A stretch of 64,000 bases of DNA from an uncultured bacterium (GCA_965372795.1 CBDVDR010000017.1:1-64000); one strand, 5' to 3'. Shown: positions 4,577 through 48,307, numbered from the stretch's first letter. The notes: generated by a model not told the origin, from the letters alone. Numbers and translations: made by a program.

Positions 4577-4700
4577 ATTGATTTCCTTTCAATGTTTGAC
4601 TGAGTTTAATATGATTAACCTTCAAAATCAAGATGAAATGTTAATTTTATAAATTTACCTTGCCAAATATCAAATTTCGCTTATTTTCACAAAAACTTAT

Positions 4701-4754
4701 GCAGGGGATGGAGTCCCCCTTTGCCCGCCAGAAATGGCTGATGACTCCTGCCAA
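4701..4754 (+). ncRNA. Fluoride (crcB) riboswitch aptamer
   Basis: GGGGATGGAGTCCCCC...GCTGATGACTCCTGC matches the fluoride riboswitch consensus (GATGGAG P1 loop pairing with CTCC in the pseudoknot), directly upstream of crcB. Confidence 0.9.
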
Positions 4755-4819
4755 TGATTGAACGATATCTTGTATTACCATTTTGGCAGGTGATTTACAT
4801 CTGCAAGGAGGAACTTACT

Positions 4820-25127: not shown

Positions 25128-25961
25128 ATGGAATTTGATAACATTTTAGAAAAACTAATTGAGTGGGGTGCACTATACGGCACCAAAATTATCGGTGCCT
25201 TTGTAATTTTAGTCATTGGGAGAATTGTTACAGGAATAATTTCAAAACTTGTTCATCGACTTATGGTAAAATCAAGTTTGGATAATGCTCTGGTACAATT
25301 TGCTACAACTCTGACAAGAATCACGATGTTAACTTTTGTAGTTCTGGCTGCGTTAAGCTCACTTGGGGTTGAAACAACTTCTTTTATTGCTATATTGGGT
25401 GCTGCCGGTTTAGCGATTGGTTTTGCTCTGCAGGGATCGTTATCTAATTTTGCTTCGGGAATCATGTTGATTATTTTCCAACCCTTCAAAAGTGAAGACT
25501 TAGTTGAAGCTGGAGGGCATCTTGGGGTTGTAAGAGAAATTAATGTTTTTCATACTGTCATAATTTCATTGGATAATAAAAGAATTATAATACCTAACGG
25601 TAAAATTACAGGTGATAGCATTATAAATTATTCAGCTGAAGGATCTCTTCGTGTTGATATGGTTTTTGGTATCGCATATCATGATAATATCAGCAAAGCA
25701 AAAGGTATATTGGAAGACATCTTAAAAGCTGACGGCCGTGTTTTAGACGATCCGCCATTTACGGTTGTGGTAAAAGAACTGGGAAACAGTTCGGTTGATT
25801 TTGCAGTCAGACCGTTTGTTAAAGTTGCAGACTACTGGGCTGTGTATTATGATACAACCGAAAAGGTGAAAAAGGCTTTTGACGAAAAAGGTGTTACGAT
25901 ACCATTCCCTCAACGCGATGTTCATTTTTACAAAGATTCAACCGAACCAATTTTGGAATAA
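25128..25961 (+). CDS. mscS: Small-conductance mechanosensitive channel
   Basis: GAAGLAIGFALQGSLSNFASG, IPNG, IPFPQRDV. Confidence 0.95.
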   Translation: MEFDNILEKLIEWGALYGTKIIGAFVILVIGRIVTGIISKLVHRLMVKSSLDNALVQFATTLTRITMLTFVVLAALSSLGVETTSFIAILGAAGLAIGFALQGSLSNFASGIMLIIFQPFKSEDLVEAGGHLGVVREINVFHTVIISLDNKRIIIPNGKITGDSIINYSAEGSLRVDMVFGIAYHDNISKAKGILEDILKADGRVLDDPPFTVVVKELGNSSVDFAVRPFVKVADYWAVYYDTTEKVKKAFDEKGVTIPFPQRDVHFYKDSTEPILE

Positions 25962-26094: not shown

Positions 26095-26282
26095 CATAAA
26101 ATAAATCATTTTCTTCTAAAAAAATCCGTGTAACTCTTTAATTTATTTAGCAATACAGCGAAATGGGTTCGTTTCAACACTTCGTGTTTTTGACTCTGGC
26201 GAAACTTGCATACATGGAGTGATTTTCAAAATGGGTTCGTTTCCTCATTTTTATACTTGCGTATACTTCGAATGTTCTTGAT
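26095..26282 (-). repeat. Dispersed non-coding element, copy A
   Basis: Reverse complement aligns by eye to 48020-48265. Contains two exact AAACGAACCCATTT (minus strand, 26161-26174 and 26229-26242) and CAAGTTTCGCCAGAG. Confidence 0.8.
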
Positions 26283-26334
26283 ACCGTAAATATTGTTTTC
26301 AAATACATTCTTATTTTTTATTTGAAATAAAACT

Positions 26335-26635
26335 CCCGTAGGTCAGGTCTCTCTTGGCTTCGAGACCTGATCTGCATCCTGTATTCTCAAAGTATAGTTT
26401 CTTAGTTTTTCTCATAATTTTAGACATAACTTACCGTTCCTCTTTTCATAGAGAGGTATGAATTCTTATTCACTAATGAAATGATGTTGAATTTGTAAGT
26501 GAGTGAAGGAAGATTTCTTCGTAGGGTTCAGGCATGCCTGAACCATTTTGTGGGCGGCAGACGCCAACCACACCTCGTGTGCTCGTCTGCCCCATCTTCA
26601 CAATAATCGGGTGCCCCACTCCTTGGGGTGGGTTT
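26335..26635 (+). repeat. REP-like palindrome cluster
   Basis: GTAGGTCAGGTCTC..GAGACCTGA (26338), GTAGGGTTCAGGCATGCCTGAACC (26521), GTGGGCGGCAGACG..CGTCTGCCCC (26550), GGGTGCCCCACTCCTTGGGGTGGG (26609). Confidence 0.8.
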
Positions 26636-26860
26636 CTATTCATCTTAACCAACTGAACACATCAGTACTATCTAGACATACTCTACTTCTACTTGATATG
26701 AATATATTAATAATTATTGACAAAAAATTTCAACATTATATCTTAATATTGAAACACGCACATCATAGTAGTCACATTTAAAGCTTGATTGACATAAACC
26801 TAACTTAAGAGTTGTCTTTTGAAAAGATTGTAATTCAACACTTTCAATAGTGGAGGAGAT

Positions 26861-28216
26861 ATGTTAAATATTTCGGAATGTCAATCAGATCTCAATGAAG
26901 AAGAAATATTACAATGTCACTCAGAACTCATAGAGGACCTAAACTTTTTCCAAAGCACAGAATTTACAACCAAATTTCGCGATAATTTTAATTTAAAAAA
27001 ACTTACACGAAAAAAGGGTATTAATGATCTGCAGAATAGAATTTCGAATTTCAGTTCAGAACCTTATTGTCATCAATTGTACTCATACATTGATGAATTA
27101 AGGATGTGGGGCAAACAACAAATTTTTTTATATAAATTTAAACCTGCTGATAAAAATGACACCTTTCTAAATGAGCTCTCCAAACCGGCATATATTCAAG
27201 AAAATTTAAAGAATAAAAACGTCGAAAATGTATTTGAAAATAATATTTGTTACTTAAAATCTGAAAAGCCTATTTTGGCTCATGTATATTACGAAAACAA
27301 AAATAATAAAACTGTTAAATTGATATTCAAATGGATAATGACTCGCAAGTACTTTAAACTTGTTGGTAAAACGTATATGCCAAGAGAAATACGATCGACC
27401 AGTTTTTTTGTTGTAAATTTGCTTGATGGCTTCGCAGAAATACGTCTACAACAATTACCACCCAACCCAAATTTGAATCCGATGCAAGAACGCGATATGT
27501 ATATAAAAGAAATTAACAAATATATCGACTTTCATAAATTTTCGTTGATAGAACTTAAACCGATTATGGAAATAATTCTGAAAAAAGCAATCTTTACAAA
27601 TAAAGCTGTAAATATTGTAAGTAGTAATAAGCCAGGTCATTTAATTTTTAAAAATTTATTTCCACGGTTTTACAAACACCCTGTTGCTAATAGTGTTTCA
27701 GCATATTGGACTTGTAAACAGGACATTATAGGTAAATCAAAAATTAATTTTACATTATTTAGAGAAAGTAACAGCATTAAATTAACGGGTGTAGTTGATC
27801 CTAAAAAATTAAATAAAATTTTAAATAAAATTTATGAAATCCATGAAGGTAATACTGATCCAATCGATCATATTCCATTTATAAGAAATGGTATTGTAGG
27901 TACAACGCTTAAACTTGTAGAAAATAAAGAAAAAACTGAGACTGTCCTGGTAACAACAGGGAGCCTCGGCGCATTTCTAATTTGGACTTTATGGGAGTTT
28001 TTGGTTGAATATATTAACCTTAAATTAACAGAACAGATTACTTGGCTCGATACAAATTATACTAAAAGTGTTGTAGAAATTTCATATATAATATTGTACT
28101 ATGGAATTGACCGGATTATTCTTAGCATAAAATTTCTATTTATTCAAAGTCCTTTTAAGCTCATAAAGTTGATTGCGGATTCAAAAAATAAGAAGATTAC
28201 AGATTTGAGAACATAA
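26861..28216 (+). CDS. Hypothetical protein (AT-rich orphan, C-terminal hydrophobic segments)
   Basis: 451-aa ORF, GGAGGAG SD, no recognised family, flanked by direct repeats. Confidence 0.75.
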   Translation: MLNISECQSDLNEEEILQCHSELIEDLNFFQSTEFTTKFRDNFNLKKLTRKKGINDLQNRISNFSSEPYCHQLYSYIDELRMWGKQQIFLYKFKPADKNDTFLNELSKPAYIQENLKNKNVENVFENNICYLKSEKPILAHVYYENKNNKTVKLIFKWIMTRKYFKLVGKTYMPREIRSTSFFVVNLLDGFAEIRLQQLPPNPNLNPMQERDMYIKEINKYIDFHKFSLIELKPIMEIILKKAIFTNKAVNIVSSNKPGHLIFKNLFPRFYKHPVANSVSAYWTCKQDIIGKSKINFTLFRESNSIKLTGVVDPKKLNKILNKIYEIHEGNTDPIDHIPFIRNGIVGTTLKLVENKEKTETVLVTTGSLGAFLIWTLWEFLVEYINLKLTEQITWLDTNYTKSVVEISYIILYYGIDRIILSIKFLFIQSPFKLIKLIADSKNKKITDLRT

Positions 28217-28348
28217 GATTATTGTTTAAGAGAACAGAAAAGATGGGACATTGCCATACAAAATGATTTGTCACTATAATAGTTTTACTGATCCGTTTGA
28301 TGTATCCGACAAACCATGCGTTTAAGCAACTACATACCATTGTCCCAA

Positions 28349-28375
28349 GGGTGCCCCACTCCTTGGGGTGGGTTT
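28349..28375 (+). repeat. Palindromic repeat identical to 26609..26635
   Basis: GGGTGCCCCACTCCTTGGGGTGGGTTT, exact 27-bp copy. Confidence 0.9.
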
Positions 28376-28379
28376 ATGT

Positions 28380-28616
28380 TCATCTCAACCAATAAATCAC
28401 ATTCAATATCGACCCCACCGCAAACAACACCCACGCCAATCGAAACAAGTTGTAACCAAGCGGAGTAAACATCGCTTTATGCTTTTTCATGTTTTGCATG
28501 TCAAGCTTCACTGTCTCTCCGGGTGGATTATCCATTTTAAGTTTGTGGGTTGATACTGCCATCAGAATGAAGGCACAGAACCAGCATAATAGTGCGAGCA
28601 CGAGAAGTATTTCCAT
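28380..28616 (-). CDS. Small two-TM hypothetical protein
   Basis: 78 aa, two hydrophobic helices, AGAGGA SD. Confidence 0.6.
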   Translation of the reverse strand: MEILLVLALLCWFCAFILMAVSTHKLKMDNPPGETVKLDMQNMKKHKAMFTPLGYNLFRLAWVLFAVGSILNVIYWLR

Positions 28617-28656
28617 CGTCAGTCCTCTTTATAAATCCTGCGTTTATTTAAGTTTG

Positions 28657-29217
28657 TTATAAAATAGTATCTACATCATTAATAAAAAGCCTAAGAATAT
28701 CCCCTTTGTTTAATCCTTTATTTGAATGCCCTAAATCTTTCCTTATTGCAAACAATAACTCTTCTAAACTTAGTAGCAGTAATGGACTTTTGGGATCAGT
28801 TGCTGTTATTGTAGTTTGTCTAAATGCAACGAATGAATTTACAACTTGATCACCACCCCAAGGTATTAACTCTTGCATAAAACCTACTAAAAATGCTATA
28901 ATTTCTTCATTTGTTTTTTTCTTTTCCTTTAACTCACCTGCAAATAAAGTATCAAATATAAAGTATATAAATTTTGTATAAATATCTCTTTTTTTCTCAC
29001 TTTGCTCTTCTCTGATTATTTTTTTCTTCTCATATAAATTTGCAATTATTAATGAAAATACAGAAATCATTATTGTTCCACTAACTGCCACTACTGCGAT
29101 AACTATATCATTATTCATACTCAAAATTTTATCTAAAACTAATTCGATTATTTTATAAATAAAGAATCCTGAAATTATTACAACAATAAGACTAAAAAAC
29201 ATACTACTATTTTTCAT
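28657..29217 (-). CDS. Hypothetical membrane protein (two N-terminal TMs)
   Basis: 186 aa, AT-rich, C-terminal IRKDLGH motif, AAGGA SD. Confidence 0.7.
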   Translation of the reverse strand: MKNSSMFFSLIVVIISGFFIYKIIELVLDKILSMNNDIVIAVVAVSGTIMISVFSLIIANLYEKKKIIREEQSEKKRDIYTKFIYFIFDTLFAGELKEKKKTNEEIIAFLVGFMQELIPWGGDQVVNSFVAFRQTTITATDPKSPLLLLSLEELLFAIRKDLGHSNKGLNKGDILRLFINDVDTIL

Positions 29218-29240
29218 AAATCCATCCTTCTATTAAAATT

Positions 29241-29305
29241 TGAGCAGGTTAGAAGCCCTACGCTCACGACAATTGTTTGGCAGCATCACAGGGATGCCGC
29301 CCTAC
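29241..29305. repeat. REP-like palindromes downstream of the KAP NTPase
   Basis: Minus-strand GTAGGGCGGCATCCCTGTGATGCTGCC (29279-29305, same family as 24913 and 43431) and TGAGCAGGTTAG..GCTCACGACA (family of 43300 and 43490). Confidence 0.75.
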
Positions 29306-29310
29306 TTGAA

Positions 29311-31032
29311 TTAAGACACTCTATCCTGAAAGTAATATTTAATGATTTTTACATTTTCATCAATTTCCTCAAAATTACTAAACAAAACTGAGGTATAGTT
29401 TAATTCCATAAATATTTCTGGTAATTCAGTGGCAGCTAAACCTGGTAATATCACTAATAGAATTTCTTTTTGTTCAAATTTATCAGAATGAAGATATTCA
29501 ATTAATTTTCTATAAAGAGATTCATCAATATTTGAATCAATAAAAAACAAAAAGGCTAAACTATTGGAAATATAACTTTCTGCTAAATATCTATTTGGGT
29601 CAAAACTTTCTAAGAAACTATCAGAATACGTCATGTGATTATAGCCAGACTCATTAAACATTTCAATTAATTTTGACAAGAATTCTTGAGGTATTGATTT
29701 CTCATTAAATATACTAACTCTAGAAAATGATTTAAGTTTTTTAGAATAATTTTCTTTCTTTCTTTGAGTCATCAGGAATTGAGTTGTTGTGGTTCTTTTG
29801 ATGTCGTTTGACAACCACTCTTCACCAAATCCGGAACTTAGCAATTTGTATAATTCTGGATCAGAGTTACATTTCTTTGCAATAATTCTAATTTTATCAT
29901 CAGGTGAGTCAATTGGAATTTTATTTTTATTTATCCATTCTATAATTTCTGCACATAGATATTTGTGTTTAATAAGTAAATCAAAGATATATTCCCACCT
30001 TGATTGTAAACTTCTTGAAATTGCAAAGTATCCTATTGGAATTTTATCATCTTCATTCGAATTTATTTCATTAAATATCTCACAATCAATAAGAAGATTA
30101 TTTACGAATCTAATAGTTGTTCTTGGATTGTTTCCGCACGCTGTACCAATAATTGGCAAAATTACTTTAAATGCATCACTATTCTCTATCTCTAATTGCT
30201 CAATCAAACTATTTGAGAAGTTTTCCATTCGTTGGTCATGAGGTGGAATTGGAAAAGGTAACTGCACCATTTTGTCTAAGTATTTACTCCCCTCGTCACC
30301 TTTTAGCCCAAATTCTTTCTCAAACCTATGTTGCAAATATCCTTCAATAATTGTTCTGGCAACTCCAAGTATGAATACGAAACCCTTTTGTGATAGAACT
30401 AATTTGATGCTTTCAAGTAGCTTGACAGCGTTATCTGGAAAACATCTATCCAAATCATCTATTAGTACTACGACTTTGAATTCAGAATCAATCTCAATCT
30501 TTGAAAGAGTTTCAAATGCATCAAAATATAAACTTTTATCAAGCAAAGGATCAGTTCTCTGTTTATCACTATGATCGATCATATCTTTCGCAACAAATCC
30601 TGCTTCTATTTCAGCAAAACCCGGAATCTTTATTTTTGATTTTGCCGAAAATCCATAGGCAACTGCTTTTAATCCTCTAACAAAAGATTTAAGTTGTCCT
30701 TTAAGCTTTTGGTCTTCACTTTTAAAATTTTCTAATCCTTGTACAATAGTTGCAACAAGGGGTACAATAGGATGATCTTCCTGTTCAAAACGCCAGGCAT
30801 TAAACCAAATCGTAATAATATTATTATTTTCCTCTAAATGCTTTTGAGTCAGTCTCAACAGGCTGGTCTTGCCTGAACCCCATTCACCGAATACACCTAT
30901 CGTAAATGGTCCGGTCGTTCCAGCCGCCGCATCGCCTAAAACTTTTGCATAAGTATGAAATCCAAGCCCATCTGTCTTAGAGTTATCATGCTCGCCGATT
31001 GCTTGATCTGATAATAATTTGAGTTTTCCCAT
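29311..31032 (-). CDS. KAP-family P-loop NTPase with a C-terminal TIR-like region
   Basis: Walker A GEWGSGKT, WFNAWRF, Walker B VVVLIDDLDRC, YLDKMVQLPF-x-IP, NPR. Confidence 0.88.
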   Translation of the reverse strand: MGKLKLLSDQAIGEHDNSKTDGLGFHTYAKVLGDAAAGTTGPFTIGVFGEWGSGKTSLLRLTQKHLEENNNIITIWFNAWRFEQEDHPIVPLVATIVQGLENFKSEDQKLKGQLKSFVRGLKAVAYGFSAKSKIKIPGFAEIEAGFVAKDMIDHSDKQRTDPLLDKSLYFDAFETLSKIEIDSEFKVVVLIDDLDRCFPDNAVKLLESIKLVLSQKGFVFILGVARTIIEGYLQHRFEKEFGLKGDEGSKYLDKMVQLPFPIPPHDQRMENFSNSLIEQLEIENSDAFKVILPIIGTACGNNPRTTIRFVNNLLIDCEIFNEINSNEDDKIPIGYFAISRSLQSRWEYIFDLLIKHKYLCAEIIEWINKNKIPIDSPDDKIRIIAKKCNSDPELYKLLSSGFGEEWLSNDIKRTTTTQFLMTQRKKENYSKKLKSFSRVSIFNEKSIPQEFLSKLIEMFNESGYNHMTYSDSFLESFDPNRYLAESYISNSLAFLFFIDSNIDESLYRKLIEYLHSDKFEQKEILLVILPGLAATELPEIFMELNYTSVLFSNFEEIDENVKIIKYYFQDRVS

Positions 31033-42609: not shown

Positions 42610-42716
42610 GTTGATACTATTATACGTATCTATTATACAATTGCCAAGTCAACAATTTTGGCGACATCATAGCTTTAGAATGAATTACATATATATAGAA
42701 TTATAAAGAGGTCTTT

Positions 42717-43157
42717 ATGCATGTTAATGAAGTATTGAATAAAAAAGGGATCAATGTTATTACAGCCGGACTGGATATGAAACTGCGCGAGGCTATGAAG
42801 ATTTTGATTTCCAACAAGATTAGTTGTTTGCCGGTATTGAACAGTTCTGATGATCTGGTTGGAATTATTAGTGATAAAGATATTTTTAAAGCGATATATA
42901 ACAATGCTGAGGCGATTGATGAGGCGGTGGTTGAAAATCATATGACAACTAATTTGATCGTTGGGTTGATTGATGATGACATTAATTTTATTGCCGGACT
43001 TATGACAAAAAATAAAATCCGCCACATTCCAATTATGGAAAATGATAAATTGTCCGGGGTGCTTTCGGTTGGAGATATTGTCAAGGTCCAGATGACTGAC
43101 ATGGAGGTTGAAAATAGATATTTGAAAGATTACATAGACGGCGCCTACCCGGGGTAA
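42717..43157 (+). CDS. CBS-domain pair protein
   Basis: LPV..LVGIISDKDI and IRHIPI..GVLSVGDIVK, GAGG SD. Confidence 0.9.
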   Translation: MHVNEVLNKKGINVITAGLDMKLREAMKILISNKISCLPVLNSSDDLVGIISDKDIFKAIYNNAEAIDEAVVENHMTTNLIVGLIDDDINFIAGLMTKNKIRHIPIMENDKLSGVLSVGDIVKVQMTDMEVENRYLKDYIDGAYPG

Positions 43158-43190
43158 GGATAACAGTGTTAATAAACACACTATATGTTA

Positions 43191-43798
43191 GTGGGCGGCA
43201 GACGCCCTCGTCTGCCCCATCCTTTTGTCATTTCGTGGGCGGCTGACGTCAACCACACTTCGTGTGCTCGTCTGCCCCATTCTCCACGTAGTATGTTCTT
43301 GAGTAGGTTAGTCCGCCAAGGCGGACGCGCTCCTGACAATTTTATATATTATATCGAACAGATTTGAGGGGTAAAATGTTCGATACTAGGAAGGCAGGAT
43401 TATTATAGTCCTGCCTTTTTTATATTCTTTGTAGGGCAGGATCCCTGTGATCCTGCCATTTTATATGTTTCTTCGTAGGGCATGTTCTTGAGTAGGTCAG
43501 TGAGCCCCGTGCTCCTGACATCTGTCATTGCGAGCGAAGCGACGCAAGCTCAGTTCGTTGTTTCGTGGGCGGCAAACGTCAACAACACCACGTGTGCTCG
43601 TCTGCCCCACTCTCCGTAGGGAACTGGCATGCCTGTTCCACCCCAAAAAACACACAACGTGTGTCATTGCGAGCCATGCGACGTAATCTCAATTTTGATA
43701 TTGTATTGTAATAATTGTCATTCCCACGAAGGCGGAAATCCAGTATTTTCCTTTAGTCCCGTAGGGTATGGTCTCTCTTGACTTCGAGACCTGATCTG
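43191..43798 (+). repeat. Mosaic of ~12 REP-like palindromes from several families
   Basis: Units at 43191, 43235, 43565 (GTGGGCGGC..CGTCTGCCCC); 43288, 43475; 43392; 43431; 43523, 43662 (TGTCATTGCGAG); 43616; 43716; 43761. Confidence 0.85.
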
Positions 43799-43834
43799 TC
43801 AGCAGAAAATTTCGAATATAATTCTTAAGTAGTC

Positions 43835-45595
43835 TTAATCTAAAATTACATATTCCAGATTCAAGTTTCTAATGCTTTCTAGAACCTCTTCATTTACATT
43901 AGGGATACTTATAAACAAGATTCTTTTTGCGCGACTCAAAGCCACATAGTAAATCCTTGCATCATCAGAATCGGCATCAAGATGCTCGGAAGCATTTAGC
44001 ACATAACGTTGGAAGTCTCGCAATTCATCATAGTACACCAAGACTTTTTCAAATTCAGTACCTTTGGCACTGTGAATTGTGCGAATGGTGTCCTCAGACT
44101 TCGTGTCTACTCTGATATATCCCAGCAAGCTTGATACGCTATTGTTTTCGTAGAATGTCTTCGGACTTCCGGGCCGAAACGTTGAGCCTAATAGGAAAGA
44201 ATGTTGAGCATGTATTCGATTCCTCAAATCTGTGTAATATTCGTATAGCGAACGTTGTCTTGTTCCATTCGCATTCAGGTCATCCAAAATACCAATTGCT
44301 GTTTTTCGTAGCTCCAGTAACGAAACTCCTTTTCCCGCTTTGGATTTCAATGGTATCAGAACCTGCCTAATGCTGTCTTTATAAAGACCTTTTTGGTAGA
44401 ACTTGAAACCCTTTAGAATGTCATGGATAACTTTAGCTCTGGCTGAATTCGAATCAGAAGCATAAAGCCCCTTGAGTAGATCGTCGCCACGTATTTCTGC
44501 TAGATTCCTAAGTACTTCAACCTCGCTATTCCTTCTCGCCAAAAGAAATACGTCTTCATGCCCGTTTTCCCCAAGCCAACCAAGCATTTGGGGAGTTGAT
44601 CCCACCAAAACCTTAACCGAATCTCCATTGATTGCGCTTGATGCTGGCTCTTGTTGAATATCAGTTCTCATGCTATTTAACAATTCTATAATTCTTCTTG
44701 AAGAACGGTGATTCTTATCTAATTTGAAATCCCGTAAATTCTCCAATTGGAAATTTTCAAAGTCACTTCGCGATGCACCTGCGAATTTATATATTGACTG
44801 ATATAAATCTCCGATTACACCTACCTTTGTATCGATTTCTGCAATCTTTTTGATAATCCACGTCTGTAATTCTGTAGTGTCTTGAAACTCGTCGATAAAG
44901 ATATAGGGGAACCTATTCCTGACGAACTCTAATACTCTTGGGCTTTTGGTTATGATTAGGTATGAGAAATAAAGAACGTCCTCATGATGCATTATTCCGT
45001 CAAGCCAATATTTGCTTTTATAAATCCACAATTCGCGATTGCTAACCGGTATTGGTGCGCCCCTATTAGCCCGGCATAATAAATCAATCTCACTTCCGAC
45101 AAAGGTATAATCCAAACTAGACAGTTGTTTGAATATTCGTATCTTATTGTCTGCGTAATTGAAGTGGATGTAACTTCTACCGTTTTCTTTCTCAATCGTT
45201 GTTTTCCATCTTCTAATTTTATCACTGTGTGGGATATGATCTTCATGTCCATTGAGTAGGTCTGTATTAAACAACGCATTACCATCATTATCTTTCTCGA
45301 TTAGATGACAAAATGGTTTGACAATATTGCGGTAGAGAAAGCTGTGAATGGTAGAGACATCAAATCTAGATTTATCGCAAATTAGTCGATCACGAATTTC
45401 TTCTGTAGCCACATTTGTGTAGGTGATACAAGCAATCTTCCTAGTAGTATTGAGCCTTTGTGATTCTGTTAAGACTCTCGCCAGATGAGCTACCAGTGCC
45501 CTTGTTTTTCCCGCACCTGGACCCGCAAAAACACGGAAGTTTGTTTCGATATTATCTAAATCAGAAAAGAGGGGAAGTGAATTGATATCTACCAT
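43835..45595 (-). CDS. gajB: UvrD-like SF1 helicase, Gabija GajB-like
   Basis: AGPGAGKT, IFIDEFQDT, GD-x-x-QSIY-x-F, NHRSS, TIHSAKG-x-EF, YVALSRAK, directly downstream of an OLD nuclease. Confidence 0.85.
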   Translation of the reverse strand: MVDINSLPLFSDLDNIETNFRVFAGPGAGKTRALVAHLARVLTESQRLNTTRKIACITYTNVATEEIRDRLICDKSRFDVSTIHSFLYRNIVKPFCHLIEKDNDGNALFNTDLLNGHEDHIPHSDKIRRWKTTIEKENGRSYIHFNYADNKIRIFKQLSSLDYTFVGSEIDLLCRANRGAPIPVSNRELWIYKSKYWLDGIMHHEDVLYFSYLIITKSPRVLEFVRNRFPYIFIDEFQDTTELQTWIIKKIAEIDTKVGVIGDLYQSIYKFAGASRSDFENFQLENLRDFKLDKNHRSSRRIIELLNSMRTDIQQEPASSAINGDSVKVLVGSTPQMLGWLGENGHEDVFLLARRNSEVEVLRNLAEIRGDDLLKGLYASDSNSARAKVIHDILKGFKFYQKGLYKDSIRQVLIPLKSKAGKGVSLLELRKTAIGILDDLNANGTRQRSLYEYYTDLRNRIHAQHSFLLGSTFRPGSPKTFYENNSVSSLLGYIRVDTKSEDTIRTIHSAKGTEFEKVLVYYDELRDFQRYVLNASEHLDADSDDARIYYVALSRAKRILFISIPNVNEEVLESIRNLNLEYVILD

Positions 45596-45598
45596 AGG

Positions 45599-47731
45599 CT
45601 AACTCAGAATAAACGTGATTGCATCAGAAATATACTCTGGTACAACAAATGCTTCACGATCTTCGCCTTTCTCTAAGTTATCCCTTAGCTGTTGCTCTAA
45701 ATAGAGTGCATGTTCACCTTTTCTCTTCTTCAACGCCTGAGAGTAAACAGCTGCAATCAAAGCTTTCTTCTTTCGATCATCTTCCCACAGGCAACCTTCA
45801 AGTGAGTCTATGATCTCAGAGTGATTAGAAAGGGCTTTAATTTCGGTGAGTGACTTTATCTGTTTGTGGGCATCTACAAGACTTATCATTACTTCTTTTC
45901 TGTTTTTGCCACGAGATGGAAACGAGTCAGTAATAAGTGATAAACAGTTGGGGTTATTGAATATCAAGTCATACTCAAGTGTCATGCCCACGCCTGCCGG
46001 TGACGAATATATGCTAATGTTTTGACTGCTTTCAACTGTAGACTGCAATATGCCTACATGCTTTGCCATCGACTTGTATTCATATGCCTCAGTGTCTTGA
46101 TCTAGTTCGAAAGGATAACAACTATGCCATCTAACTTTCTTTCCGTGCTCATTAACGTCTGATCCTGGTGGGGGCTTATCTTTTCTGCATGGGTCTGTGT
46201 CAGTTATGCAGGCAACTTTCTTATTGATTGCAAAGCGTTTTGAATCCTTGTTATAAGTGAATAGTTTCAGGAAGTGGTCGAAAGTGCGACTGTCAACACT
46301 CACTATGCAAACATGTTTGTTCAACAAGTCTTCTTCCTTACTCAAGTAAGAAGCAAGGCAGGGTAGTAATACTTGTTCAGCGAGCCCTTCAACAAGAATC
46401 ACTCTTTCCGCGAATAGCATATTCGACTTTGTAGCGTCTAGGAACCGTTTTACATAATTTTTGGAGTTCACATCTTCTGGCGTGTCTGTGAATACTTTGC
46501 CAGGATAACCCACCTGTTGCTTTCCCTCAATATCTTCGTACAAGCAAATCACCGCATCCAAATCCACTGCGGCAGTAATGTGTGTAGAATGTGAAGTGAT
46601 GAATAATTGTCTTGCCTGCTCCTGCTTTTTGAGGTTATTGTCGAGAAACTGTAGAAATTTATATTGCATCGATGGATGCAGATGAGCTTCCGGTTCTTCT
46701 ATTGCTAAAATGGGGAACACTTTTGCATTGTCGCCCATAAACCCCGAGCGTTGCATTTGCATCTTTGCAAGGATTAGGGCTATGAATAGCAGATTGTTGT
46801 ATCCCAAACCGTTATGCGTAATCGGAAATGTAAAACCTGATTGCTCTACGATGAGCCTCAATGCGAAAAGTATTTCATGCTCGCTGATTGTAGCATCGAA
46901 ATCTGGTTTACCGCCTTTATCTGCCCCTGTTTCTTGCGAGTATTCAAGGATTTTCTCTTTTGAGATACGGTCTATTAGGTGCTGTAACAGAGCTTCCGAT
47001 TTCTCGGAAAACTCTCGTTCTCTGTCTCTAAGGATTGACTTTGTCGCATCGTCTAATTCCTCAAATTGCTTCCCGTTAGAAACATCATAATCAAGAAAAT
47101 AACGGAGTACATCTCTCAGTAGAGTATTGTTGCCATAGAACATTTGTCTTTCTGCGTCGCGGATCGCGTCGAGAAATTGAAAATCAAATCGATCAAGGTT
47201 TTCTGACTCCGCTCTCTCCTCGCGCTTTGGGTCACCTCCAAATATTTGTGATACATACTTATTGATAAATCTCTTACCTATTACGCTGAAGCAATCCTTC
47301 TGGATATAATTTCCTTCTGCATCTTTGTGTTCTTCGATAACTTCCTTATATTCTTCCAAATGCTTACTGGGCAAGAAGAATGTATATGTTAATTGAGCTT
47401 CATATGGAGGTCCTTCGTTGATCAGCCAATCATATATTACATTCTTGTCATCGGGCTTTTCAGCATCAGGATGCTCAGTTATAGTAACTCTTATATCTAT
47501 GCGTGGTGGACTTGAAAAGTCATCGTATGTCTTATTGAAATCATCAATTGTTGGCCTGTTTCTTTGTTCCCTAGCAAATACAAATTGTAAAGCCCTCAGC
47601 ACATTCGTTTTACCGGCATTGTTGTGACCAATTATTACATTTAGCCCAGGGGTAAATATGACTGATGTATCAATAAAGTTCCTAAAATTGGAAATTTGAA
47701 TATTAGAGATATACATTACATTTTCACCCAA
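45599..47731 (-). CDS. gajA: OLD-family ABC ATPase/TOPRIM nuclease, Gabija GajA-like
   Basis: GHNNAGKT, GLGYNN signature, IEEPEAHLHP, ITSHS, TOPRIM ILVEGLAE and DTD. ATG 47716 is an alternative start. Confidence 0.88.
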   Translation of the reverse strand: MGENVMYISNIQISNFRNFIDTSVIFTPGLNVIIGHNNAGKTNVLRALQFVFAREQRNRPTIDDFNKTYDDFSSPPRIDIRVTITEHPDAEKPDDKNVIYDWLINEGPPYEAQLTYTFFLPSKHLEEYKEVIEEHKDAEGNYIQKDCFSVIGKRFINKYVSQIFGGDPKREERAESENLDRFDFQFLDAIRDAERQMFYGNNTLLRDVLRYFLDYDVSNGKQFEELDDATKSILRDREREFSEKSEALLQHLIDRISKEKILEYSQETGADKGGKPDFDATISEHEILFALRLIVEQSGFTFPITHNGLGYNNLLFIALILAKMQMQRSGFMGDNAKVFPILAIEEPEAHLHPSMQYKFLQFLDNNLKKQEQARQLFITSHSTHITAAVDLDAVICLYEDIEGKQQVGYPGKVFTDTPEDVNSKNYVKRFLDATKSNMLFAERVILVEGLAEQVLLPCLASYLSKEEDLLNKHVCIVSVDSRTFDHFLKLFTYNKDSKRFAINKKVACITDTDPCRKDKPPPGSDVNEHGKKVRWHSCYPFELDQDTEAYEYKSMAKHVGILQSTVESSQNISIYSSPAGVGMTLEYDLIFNNPNCLSLITDSFPSRGKNRKEVMISLVDAHKQIKSLTEIKALSNHSEIIDSLEGCLWEDDRKKKALIAAVYSQALKKRKGEHALYLEQQLRDNLEKGEDREAFVVPEYISDAITFILS

Positions 47732-47958
47732 TCTACTTTTATTAAATGTTAATCTTCCTACGCTTTTATGCCTTGCGACTATTTAAAATTGTTTATCCCG
47801 TAGTCGATCCATAAATCTACAATATTATTATCCTTTTTGCTAATAATTATTCAATAAATATGCTCCTCCCCCACTTTCCCCACACTTTCAATGGTGAATG
47901 CGATAACGCACCCCTTTATAAAAGGAGGAACGGTAAGTTATGCCCAAAATCCCAACCA

Positions 47959-48265
47959 CGAAGTATGCGTAAGTATACAAAATTCACAAAATCACACCCT
48001 GCGACAAAACACTCTTTTATGCAAAAACACTCGAAGTATGCGTAAGTATAAAAAGTGAGCAAACGAACCCATTTCTACATATCACATATAGTGTCCAAGT
48101 TTCGCCAGAGAAAAACACACGATGTGTGAAAAATGTGCCTTTAAAGTACCGTAACAGTCGAAGTATGCGTAAGTATAAAAAGTAACAAAACGAACCCATT
48201 TTGGTTGTACAAACATTGCCAACAATGACTTACAGCGAAAAAAATTATATTTTAGGGAGAAAAAC
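47959..48265 (+). repeat. Dispersed non-coding element, copy B, with internal direct repeats
   Basis: CGAAGTATGCGTAAGTATA x3 (47959, 48032, 48159), AAACGAACCCATTT x2 (48061, 48188), homologous to the reverse complement of 26095-26282. Confidence 0.85.
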
Positions 48266-48277
48266 ACACTATGCCAC

Positions 48278-48307
48278 AAAAAAACCGCATCGTTAAATGC
48301 GGTTTTT
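48278..48307 (-). terminator. Intrinsic terminator after frr
   Basis: AAAAAAACCGCAT-loop-ATGCGGTTTTT. Confidence 0.8.

Follow-up and report, generated by a model that had tools for sequence, protein, structure and literature searches.

Two copies of an intergenic element in the window

The window analysed here is a stretch of 64,000 nucleotides (contig C17) from the genome of an uncultured bacterium, called G000 below, whose assembly comprises 3.35 Mb in 69 contigs at 38% GC. Two inverted copies of an intergenic element lie within it. Copy B is found between the start of gajA (47731), a gene of the Gabija system, and the frr terminator (48280-48307), which we do not count as part of the element. 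Copy A is found on the other strand, between an mscS-like gene ending at 25961 and a group of orphan and KAP genes. The original prediction had placed copy B between frr and Gabija and copy A before the orphan/KAP genes, and had recognized the two copies by a set of words in common order, all of which are present where it had placed them. The 19-mer CGAAGTATGCGTAAGTATA occurs exactly at 47959, 48032 and 48159 (+), with spacings of 73 and 127 and an expectation of 0.01 matches by shuffling, and with 2 mismatches at 26252-26270 (-) in copy A. For the 14-mer AAACGAACCCATTT there are exact copies at 48061 and 48188 (+) and 26161 and 26229 (-), and for CAAGTTTCGCCAGAG at 48096 (+) and 26194 (-). 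The extent first proposed for copy B (47959..48265) proved too short, because a conserved head of about 75 nt precedes these motifs; copy B extends over about 47868-48282 (+) and copy A over about 26501-26118 (-).

Copy B opens with the 5' part of the head (47868..47944, +), which matches a leader profile with an nhmmer E-value of 1.1e-21 and contains a C-rich box, TTTCCCCAC (47875-47883), the word TTTCAATGGTGAAT (47886-47899), TATAAAA (47917-47923), GGAGG (47924-47928) and an ATG (47940-47942). A complete head unit, running from the Shine-Dalgarno (SD) sequence and ATG through an A-rich filler to a first core, covers 47923..48074 (+; positions 1-154 of a head profile, E 6e-25) and includes the first two copies of the 19-mer (47959-47977 and 48032-48050) as well as core 1 (48061-48074). 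It is followed by a linker (48096..48128, +) made of words common to copy A and other loci, namely CAAGTTTCGCCAGAG and then GAGAAAAA with a small hairpin CACACGATGTGTG. A second, partial head unit (48109..48202, +; profile positions 45-155, E 7e-15) is a tandem duplicate of the 3' part and carries the third 19-mer copy (48159-48177) and core 2 (48188-48201). The tail (48203..48282, +), with GGTTGTAC...CTTACAGCGAAAAAAA and a degenerate GAGAAAAACACAC word, adjoins the frr terminator.

Copy A has the same plan, with its head split. The 5' part of the head, with leader, SD and ATG, lies at 26423..26501 (-; leader profile E 2.1e-16), and a GC-rich REP-type hairpin inserted at 26335..26375 (-) breaks the head profile into 26443-26384 and 26295-26229. 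This hairpin is a passenger outside the element family. The 3' part (26118..26295, -) contains the 19-mer variant, a core (26229-26242), CAAGTTTCGCCAGAG (26194-26208) and, in what the profile search identified as a second partial unit, another core (26161-26174) and the tail. REP-type hairpins of several GC-rich families (GTGGGCGGCAGACG..CGTCTGCCCCA, GTCCGCCAAGGCGGAC and GTAGGGCAG..CTGCC) are dense in G000; they are found at 43157-43835 and 26520-26640 of the window and at many other loci, where they insert into or between elements and cause spurious long-range matches between loci.

The head of each copy faces a small islet of accessory genes. For copy B this is the Gabija pair GajB and GajA (43835..47731, -; PADLOC E 1e-163 and 5e-253, respectively), and for copy A it is a 451-aa orphan, a 186-aa ORF and a KAP-family NTPase (26861..31032; Pfam KAP_NTPase E 6e-40, QatA/PDC-S20-like in PADLOC). 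Four relatives show the arrangement of the copy B region with no core between frr and the next gene: frr is followed by a convergent CBS gene and then by uppS, cdsA and so on. Neither was a core present in the 20 metagenome frr loci scanned of 37 returned, the closest of which is 72% identical; the contig of a genome of the same genus (G001) ends 254 nt after frr. In G000 the genes CBS-uppS-cdsA-ubiA-nlpC-uvrC are present at 37-43 kb, and the block between CBS (ending at 43157) and frr consists of 650 nt of REP-rich DNA, GajB, GajA and copy B. None of the other 159 genomes of the order has a GajA homolog at E<=1e-30. Gabija is unique to G000 and is therefore foreign cargo beside an element native to the order. 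We rejected the idea that copies A and B bracket a single island of 21.5 kb, since uppS-cdsA-ubiA-nlpC-uvrC between them is conserved core synteny; each copy thus marks an islet of its own. Two ORFs overlap at the CBS position, 42675-43181 (-) and 42717-43157 (+). Synteny with the relatives identifies the + strand, 146-aa CBS-domain-type gene as the real one, and its lack of a Pfam match is explained by the - strand ORF having been scanned.

A family of gene-less mosaic elements

The element had been thought to be present twice, whereas it belongs to a family of about 30 loci. The 11-base core AAACGAACCCA has 53 exact copies in G000, against 1.6 expected from base composition, and these fall into 31 same-strand arrays (15 singles, 10 doubles and 6 triples). 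The arrays are preceded by the conserved head of about 75 nt, with the layout ..CCCCC..TTTCCCCAC..TTCAnTGGTGAAT..N17-18..TATAAAAGGAGGAACGGTnAGTTATG, except for two (C1:154190 and C2:295591) that have an ORF in its place. A search with the leader profile returned 26 loci at E<=1.5e-8 plus a few weaker ones. The commonest complete head measures 207 nt from C-box to core (6 copies), and two heads measure 227 nt owing to an optional insert of 20 nt. This insert is the 19-mer of the original prediction, of which G000 has 6 exact copies; it falls in a CGAAGTRTR word family with 135 genomic copies, 54 of them no more than 700 nt from a core. The modules downstream are, by profile search, tandem duplicates of the 3' part of the head. 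Spacings range from 63 to 336 nt and the linkers are homologous between loci, features that led us to reject a CRISPR array. The element strand is A-rich (42% A vs 21% T) and its C and G contents are similar (0.188 vs 0.179), on which ground a Rho-loading (C>G) function was rejected. Elements begin at a sharp 5' boundary and vary at their 3' end. Across different families of the order the boxes and the TATAAA-like box keep an approximately constant spacing, and the SD and ATG are conserved.

It is thus well supported that G000 carries about 30 gene-less, one-directional mosaic elements, each composed of a head, an A-rich filler and one to three tandem modules ending in a core. That fixed motifs stand among drifting linkers had been noticed from the two copies and holds for the family at large: the core is invariant across an order and the linkers vary. 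The earlier description would have been refuted had there been two copies only, with motifs no better conserved than the linkers; the number of loci and the invariance of the core show the opposite.

Several identities were considered and set aside. The family's own words are A-rich and linear, and GTAG-type GC hairpins occur only as insertions that split copies, so that the element is not of the REP, BIME or REPIN type. Nor is it a small protein gene: in 8 heads the differences at codon positions 1, 2 and 3 number 246, 335 and 295, and stops follow 6 to 47 codons after the ATG. The initial impression of neither a REP hairpin nor a credible ORF was therefore sound. With respect to a structured RNA, RNAalifold gave 0 consensus pairs over 15 heads, and inspection found no covariation in the TGTA..TACA stem, in the AAA/TTT flanks, or in a hairpin closing the core (AAA/TTT or GT..CAA/TTG..AC). 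An Rfam search, one of the checks proposed with the original prediction, found no family at the element, where the best match (E 0.26) was far below cut-off. The one family above its gathering threshold in the window is a fluoride riboswitch (crcB motif; 4695-4757, +), at 46 bits vs a gathering score of 34. Among the identities first offered, a structured ncRNA family is thus disfavoured, and a non-autonomous element agrees with the reading that we prefer below. A CsrA site was rejected as well, as GUACAAGGA is present in some modules and most read ACAGCGA. An integron attC site was also rejected: the module arms GTTGTA...TACAAC are in the reverse of the RYYYAAC ... GTTRRRY order, and the tyrosine recombinases are not beside arrays.

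Gene X and the ends of the element

The ORFs that take the place of the head at two arrays of G000 belong to one gene, which we call gene X (C1:153676-154215, before the array at C1:154190, and C2:295077-295607, before that at C2:295591; the L156/L157 pair). Its product begins ..KKQKLANQRNAKKSTGPKTPEGKAKSSQNAIKHGL and is about 200 residues long; a long helical hairpin comes after the motif ANxRNAxKSTGPKTxEGKxxSSxNAxKHGL. The region upstream of gene X is the 5' half of the head: the leader profile, which was built from G000 heads, matches it at the two loci with E 1.9e-4 and 1.8e-3, and matches immediately before X, at E<1e-3, in 10 of the 31 X loci examined. Judged by this similarity, the 5' part of the copy B head and the upstream region of gene X with its start are homologous. 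At the other end, the 3' end of the ORF contains the core in G000, and 29 of the 31 loci have a core-like motif (<=2 mismatches) between -60 and +200 nt from the end of X homology. The motif follows the stop codon in 15 loci and lies inside the ORF in 14, in frames 2, 0 and 1 (8, 3 and 3 loci); since it may stand after the stop or in any frame, it is a nucleotide-level signal.

The two X loci of G000 have 594 nt in common at 91% identity, beginning exactly at the C-box of the head, and their neighbours are unrelated (an NB-ARC STAND gene in one case and Hachiman HamA/HamB in the other). From these alignments X, head and core form a discrete unit at both loci. That both element ends are common to a protein-coding unit could not have been seen from the window's sequence. 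The repeats keep both ends of this unit without its coding part and are therefore gene-less derivatives of it, a derivation that we regard as well supported; in G000 heads and X genes number about 29 and 2.

Gene X has no Pfam or NCBIfam family. A search at E<=0.001 gave 184 relatives, for none of which a Pfam domain had been precomputed, and those bearing a source name among the matches listed (at least 120) are all called 'hypothetical protein'. The predicted structure is confident (pLDDT 84) and made of long helices. No informative match was found by Foldseek (best E 0.28), by a VIA-wide search, in which the best Z of 8.1 fell on generic coiled coils, or by a PDB sequence search, and no catalytic domain was recognisable in the Pfam, NCBIfam, PDB and fold searches. 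A full-text literature search, judged by title and abstract, gave no description of the X motifs, of the core and its complement, or of Zixibacterial intergenic repeats; the papers listed as containing the core string apparently concern, by the same measure, unrelated uses such as primers. The protein family, which is without annotation, deserves a family entry.

Distribution within the order and in other phyla

The 14-mer AAACGAACCCAWWT is present in 106 of 160 genomes of the order, with backwards-read controls at 0-1 per genome. Core copy number ranges from 0 to 55 per genome and is patchy within genera (for example 44 and 45 vs 0, 0, 1 and 1), a pattern that is accessory-like. Gene X is found in 86 of the 160 genomes: in 63 of the 78 with at least 6 cores and in 23 of the 82 with fewer, giving an odds ratio of about 11 that ignores kinship and involves some circularity, X itself contributing 1-2 cores. 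The remaining 15 genomes with at least 6 cores are without X.

Beyond the phylum, multiple copies of the core were found in a Terriglobia genome (9) and in an alphaproteobacterial genome (4), with backwards-read controls at 0. X occurs in 4 of 4 core-bearing genomes of other phyla and an exact or near-exact core stands downstream of 5 of 6 X genes there, so that X plus core spans three phyla besides the Zixibacteria. In the Terriglobia genome (G160, L087-L094) the word CTTTGTTTTCAAC comes 5-7 nt after the core and repeats, imperfectly and in inverted orientation, a TGACAAAAC stretch that spans the core's 5' edge; the site in this genome is therefore palindromic, and two of its loci have two cores 42 nt apart. 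In the alphaproteobacterial genome (G164, L096/L097) a core stands some 30 nt before an X gene and directly behind a DUF968/HNH-like gene, the 3' end of which is present in duplicate at two loci; the order of parts is unlike that in Zixibacteria. A further genome, recorded as Ignavibacteriales (G161), has core coordinates identical to those of G063, which is placed in the window's own family; some Zixibacteria MAGs thus appear to be labelled Ignavibacteriales. The extended core had 0 matches in a viral contig collection. A pattern scan of the contig collection gave 44 stretches, mostly chance-level single matches, and undercounts relative to a genome-by-genome search.

These data bear on two alternatives. 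The first is that the repeats are inert remnants, the heads being decayed X pseudogenes, locally duplicated in gene-poor variable regions, and their nearness to islets reflecting former X sites. The reading frame from the ATG is indeed broken at different points in different copies, the codon positions show no coding constraint, REP hairpins are inserted in many copies, and there are the genomes rich in cores and devoid of X. We nevertheless think this explanation unlikely. Six copies keep a head of 207 nt and two one of 227 nt, with conserved internal words, unlike what independent decay would leave; the core is invariant in 53 copies, and is the same across the order and in other phyla, coding or not; and the heads far outnumber the X genes in G000.

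The second alternative is packaging, in which X would resemble a small terminase and the core arrays would be pac-like, so that a phage-derived capsid system or a helper phage would start one-directional headful packaging of the islet. The position of the core at the end of X and the polarity of the arrays are as in pac sites; the PHROG families that attract the largest number of X members are annotated 'terminase small subunit' (three families, matched by 5 of 39 members with a best E of 0.0019); and the HK97 small terminase is among the weak fold matches of X. On the other side, no terminase match is significant after 39 scans, the fold matches are to generic coiled coils, X is patchy in the order and accompanies the core in other phyla, and viral contigs gave no match to the core pattern. 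We consider packaging very improbable.

Genomic neighbourhoods and polarity

Both flanks were annotated for all 31 arrays of G000, and merging of pairs gave 27 neighbourhoods. By our own tally, known defence or toxin-antitoxin (TA)-type genes stand on the head side in 13 of the 27 and on the array side in 0. The head-side genes comprise Gabija; Shedu with KAP; KAP; EcoRII with Dcm and Vsr; AbiEi/Eii; SoFic with Fic; Fic; Hachiman; a HamB-like helicase with PDC-M48B; two NB-ARC STAND genes; SocA-Panacea; and DUF4238. About 8 of the 27 neighbourhoods have ORFans or unknowns on this side, and about 6 have ordinary or core-like genes such as BipA, an ABC-F ATPase or LRR-Roc-COR. The array side is mostly of housekeeping type (frr, gyrA, secA, cdaA/folP/ftsH, mnmA, proS/recO, gatD/E, glnA and queA), with unknown or surface-type proteins in some cases; three generic PADLOC matches on array sides were disregarded, and no specific defence match was found there. 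In our reading of 19 checked arrays, 14 point at the 3' end of a convergent gene and end at its terminator. The elements thus mostly sit where core genes meet accessory, often anti-phage, genes.

Five outward-facing pairs less than 5 kb apart bracket islets of 1-3 genes in G000, in which no other close configuration was found; most islets have an element on one side only. Close pairs in three other genomes (G021, G028 and G039, taken together) are outward in 2-3 cases, tandem in 5 and inward in 1, so that the outward bias is weaker there. G039, from another family of the order, shows the same polarity trend in weaker form and with fewer recognisable defence genes on the head side. This side has mostly ORFans together with a C5 methylase, an integrase, an ORF6N gene and a Y1 gene inside a pair adjoining glmS; the array side has IleS/LspA, RarA, GlmS and PDH-E1. 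The pair in question (C20:83244-85720, L144) faces outward just downstream of glmS, the classical attachment neighbourhood of Tn7; between its arrays lie an unknown gene of 376 aa and one for an IS200-like Y1 transposase, and no Tn7 genes are present at it. Upstream neighbours of X at 23 loci of other genomes include TIR, caspase, SocA-Panacea, M78/IrrE and CAAX protease genes, and in 13 of the 23 are without a Pfam family. A GmrSD_N match beside X is weak, at 23.9 bits and under the 33.2-bit cutoff of Pfam.

The direction of the arrays also bears on a regulatory or decoy RNA. The head would then be the promoter of a short, unstructured, A-rich RNA with 1-3 cores, obtained from the X mRNA by removal of its coding part, and the transcript would titrate or guide X, provided that X binds the core in RNA form, or another factor, and tune the neighbouring accessory genes. 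We regard such an RNA, and equally this role for it, as somewhat unlikely. The two conserved boxes and the TATAAA-like box at near-constant spacing are consistent with a promoter, the conserved SD and ATG with an mRNA origin, and the sharp 5' boundary and variable 3' end with a transcription unit; the core is a linear motif in tandem on a strand of skewed A content, and most of the arrays checked run into a convergent gene from its 3' side, stopping at the terminator. Yet the head is not called in a sigma-70 promoter scan, neither a consensus structure nor covariation was found, the AAA/TTT flanks and the TGTA/TACA stem included, and a decoy RNA by itself leaves unexplained why heads face accessory genes and why outward pairs bracket islets.

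Persistence of the elements was followed in genus g21, where identity between species is 88-95%. In three of its species two tandem arrays and the intervening gene occupy orthologous sites, and one array of an outward-facing pair is orthologous in two. The other array of this pair is inside a 3.1-kb segment found only in G021, which replaces a different 2-kb segment of two sister species; the limits of the G021-only segment do not match the element boundaries and no coinciding junction was caught. A 3.8-kb cassette of two genes (575 and 629 aa; L199 7425-11043, G021 C5) is likewise specific to G021 and lies inside an array-bracketed region; at its site G083 is empty with 60 nt left and G085 carries a 501-aa gene instead. 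Elements can therefore be inherited for long periods and the regions that they border turn over.

A possible mode of action

The retention of both ends of the X unit recalls the way in which non-autonomous elements keep the ends of an autonomous one, and by this analogy we arrive at the reading that we tentatively prefer, with somewhat less than even confidence: the repeats may be non-autonomous end-modules of an undescribed cargo-linked element, on which X would act in trans to insert or exchange the adjacent cargo. Small blocks of accessory genes, frequently anti-phage, would have the X unit or its gene-less form as their end-module. Both retained ends would be cis sites, acted on by X supplied from a full copy, and X would work together with some host or unlinked enzyme. 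The element would mark, and probably mediate, the insertion or exchange of blocks beside core genes, with its head towards the cargo and its cores outwards. In favour of this reading are the size of the family, the two ends common to X and the repeats, the company of X and core in other phyla, the discrete X unit of G000, the co-occurrence of X with high core numbers, the patchy copy number, the core-free frr-CBS site of relatives together with the Gabija pair found in G000 alone, the polarity of the neighbourhoods, the outward-facing pairs and the accessory-type neighbours of X elsewhere.

The search for a co-occurring recombinase that had been suggested with the original prediction found none linked to the elements in G000, and we rejected the mobilisers considered one after the other. 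A Tn7/Mu-type enzyme is contradicted by 0 matches to PF00665 (rve) in G000, which is 98.65% complete, when control genomes score. G000 has 4 tyrosine recombinases, none next to arrays, and 3 Y1 genes, none near arrays. Dependence on RAYT/Y1 was rejected since Y1_Tnp is found in 141 of the 160 genomes whatever the core count; it has no match in G020, G054, G104, G121 and G138 despite 9-18 cores, some of these assemblies being fragmented. A MITE with terminal inverted repeats was rejected as well, as repeat searches and alignments gave no terminal inverted pair and the head is unlike the core and tail. Neither the two X loci nor copy B showed a target-site duplication; the right ends are blurred by REP insertions. 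The missing linkage to a transposase or integrase, the lack of a recognisable catalytic domain in X, the ends that are not mutually inverted, the one-sided state of most islets, the weaker outward bias in the three other genomes, the sparser defence genes at G039 heads, the core-like head sides in G000, the arrays at orthologous g21 sites and the genomes rich in cores but devoid of X all count against the end-module reading and temper our preference for it.

A broader proposal, possible in our view and rather doubtful, is that X, head box and 3' core together form an unrecognised unit, common to several phyla, that may move, exchange or package accessory blocks without a classical transposase or integrase. 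If it were true, the gene-less copies of Zixibacteria would be non-autonomous landing or end sites, and the unit would offer a new route by which defence islets are assembled beside core genes. The family gives a testable handle on how small, integrase-less defence islets arrive and turn over in chromosomes. Even if the elements are passive, core and head are markers of variable, defence-rich spots in Zixibacteria and probably in others.

Comparison with known systems

Mosaic intergenic repeats are known from the BIMEs of enterobacteria, the BOX elements of pneumococcus and the NIMEs of Neisseria, which consist of dRS3 plus RS. The family described here is like them in its small set of words in fixed order, its variable number of modules, its location at gene ends and its REP-type passengers. 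The dRS3 elements have a short invariant word, variable linkers and a position near variable genes, and in these respects too the family resembles them. The present elements differ in having no GC palindromes, no dependence on RAYT/Y1 and a head that comes from the 5' region of a gene, and their core is conserved across an order and in other phyla, which is far deeper.

CsrB and RsmZ are multi-site decoy RNAs, and the ToxI repeats are type III antitoxins. By analogy with these, a short motif in tandem behind a promoter could bind a cognate protein; in contrast to them, the elements have no conserved hairpin presentation or processing signal, and the repeat lies downstream of the protein gene and not upstream. 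Pac sites usually lie within the small-terminase gene or at its end, and their action is one-directional. The core would be analogous as a cis signal that closes a small helical gene of DNA-binding type, works in one direction and has gene-less copies that might be used in trans. The terminase likeness of X is weak, however, with no link to capsid genes and no occurrence in viral contigs.

The ends of Tn7-like and Mu-like elements hold several transposase-binding repeats each and can enclose defence cargo. The elements similarly present 1-3 direct sites of about 20 nt per end, and two ends that belong together stand in inverted orientation; anti-phage genes are frequent in the cargo, and housekeeping genes lie upstream of the insertion, with one pair in G039 adjoining glmS. 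The differences are the absence of an rve transposase in G000, site spacings of 60-230 nt in place of about 20-40, and the one-ended state of most islets.

With respect to MITEs, the elements differ in lacking terminal inverted repeats and a detected target-site duplication, in having a variable tandem array at one end, and in a putative autonomous unit that encodes a small helical protein without a recognisable transposase fold. They are nonetheless like MITEs in the relation of the short form to the long one: gene-less copies keep both ends of a longer, gene-bearing unit and outnumber it (about 29 to 2 in G000), they co-occur with the full unit across genomes, and they can persist where it is absent.
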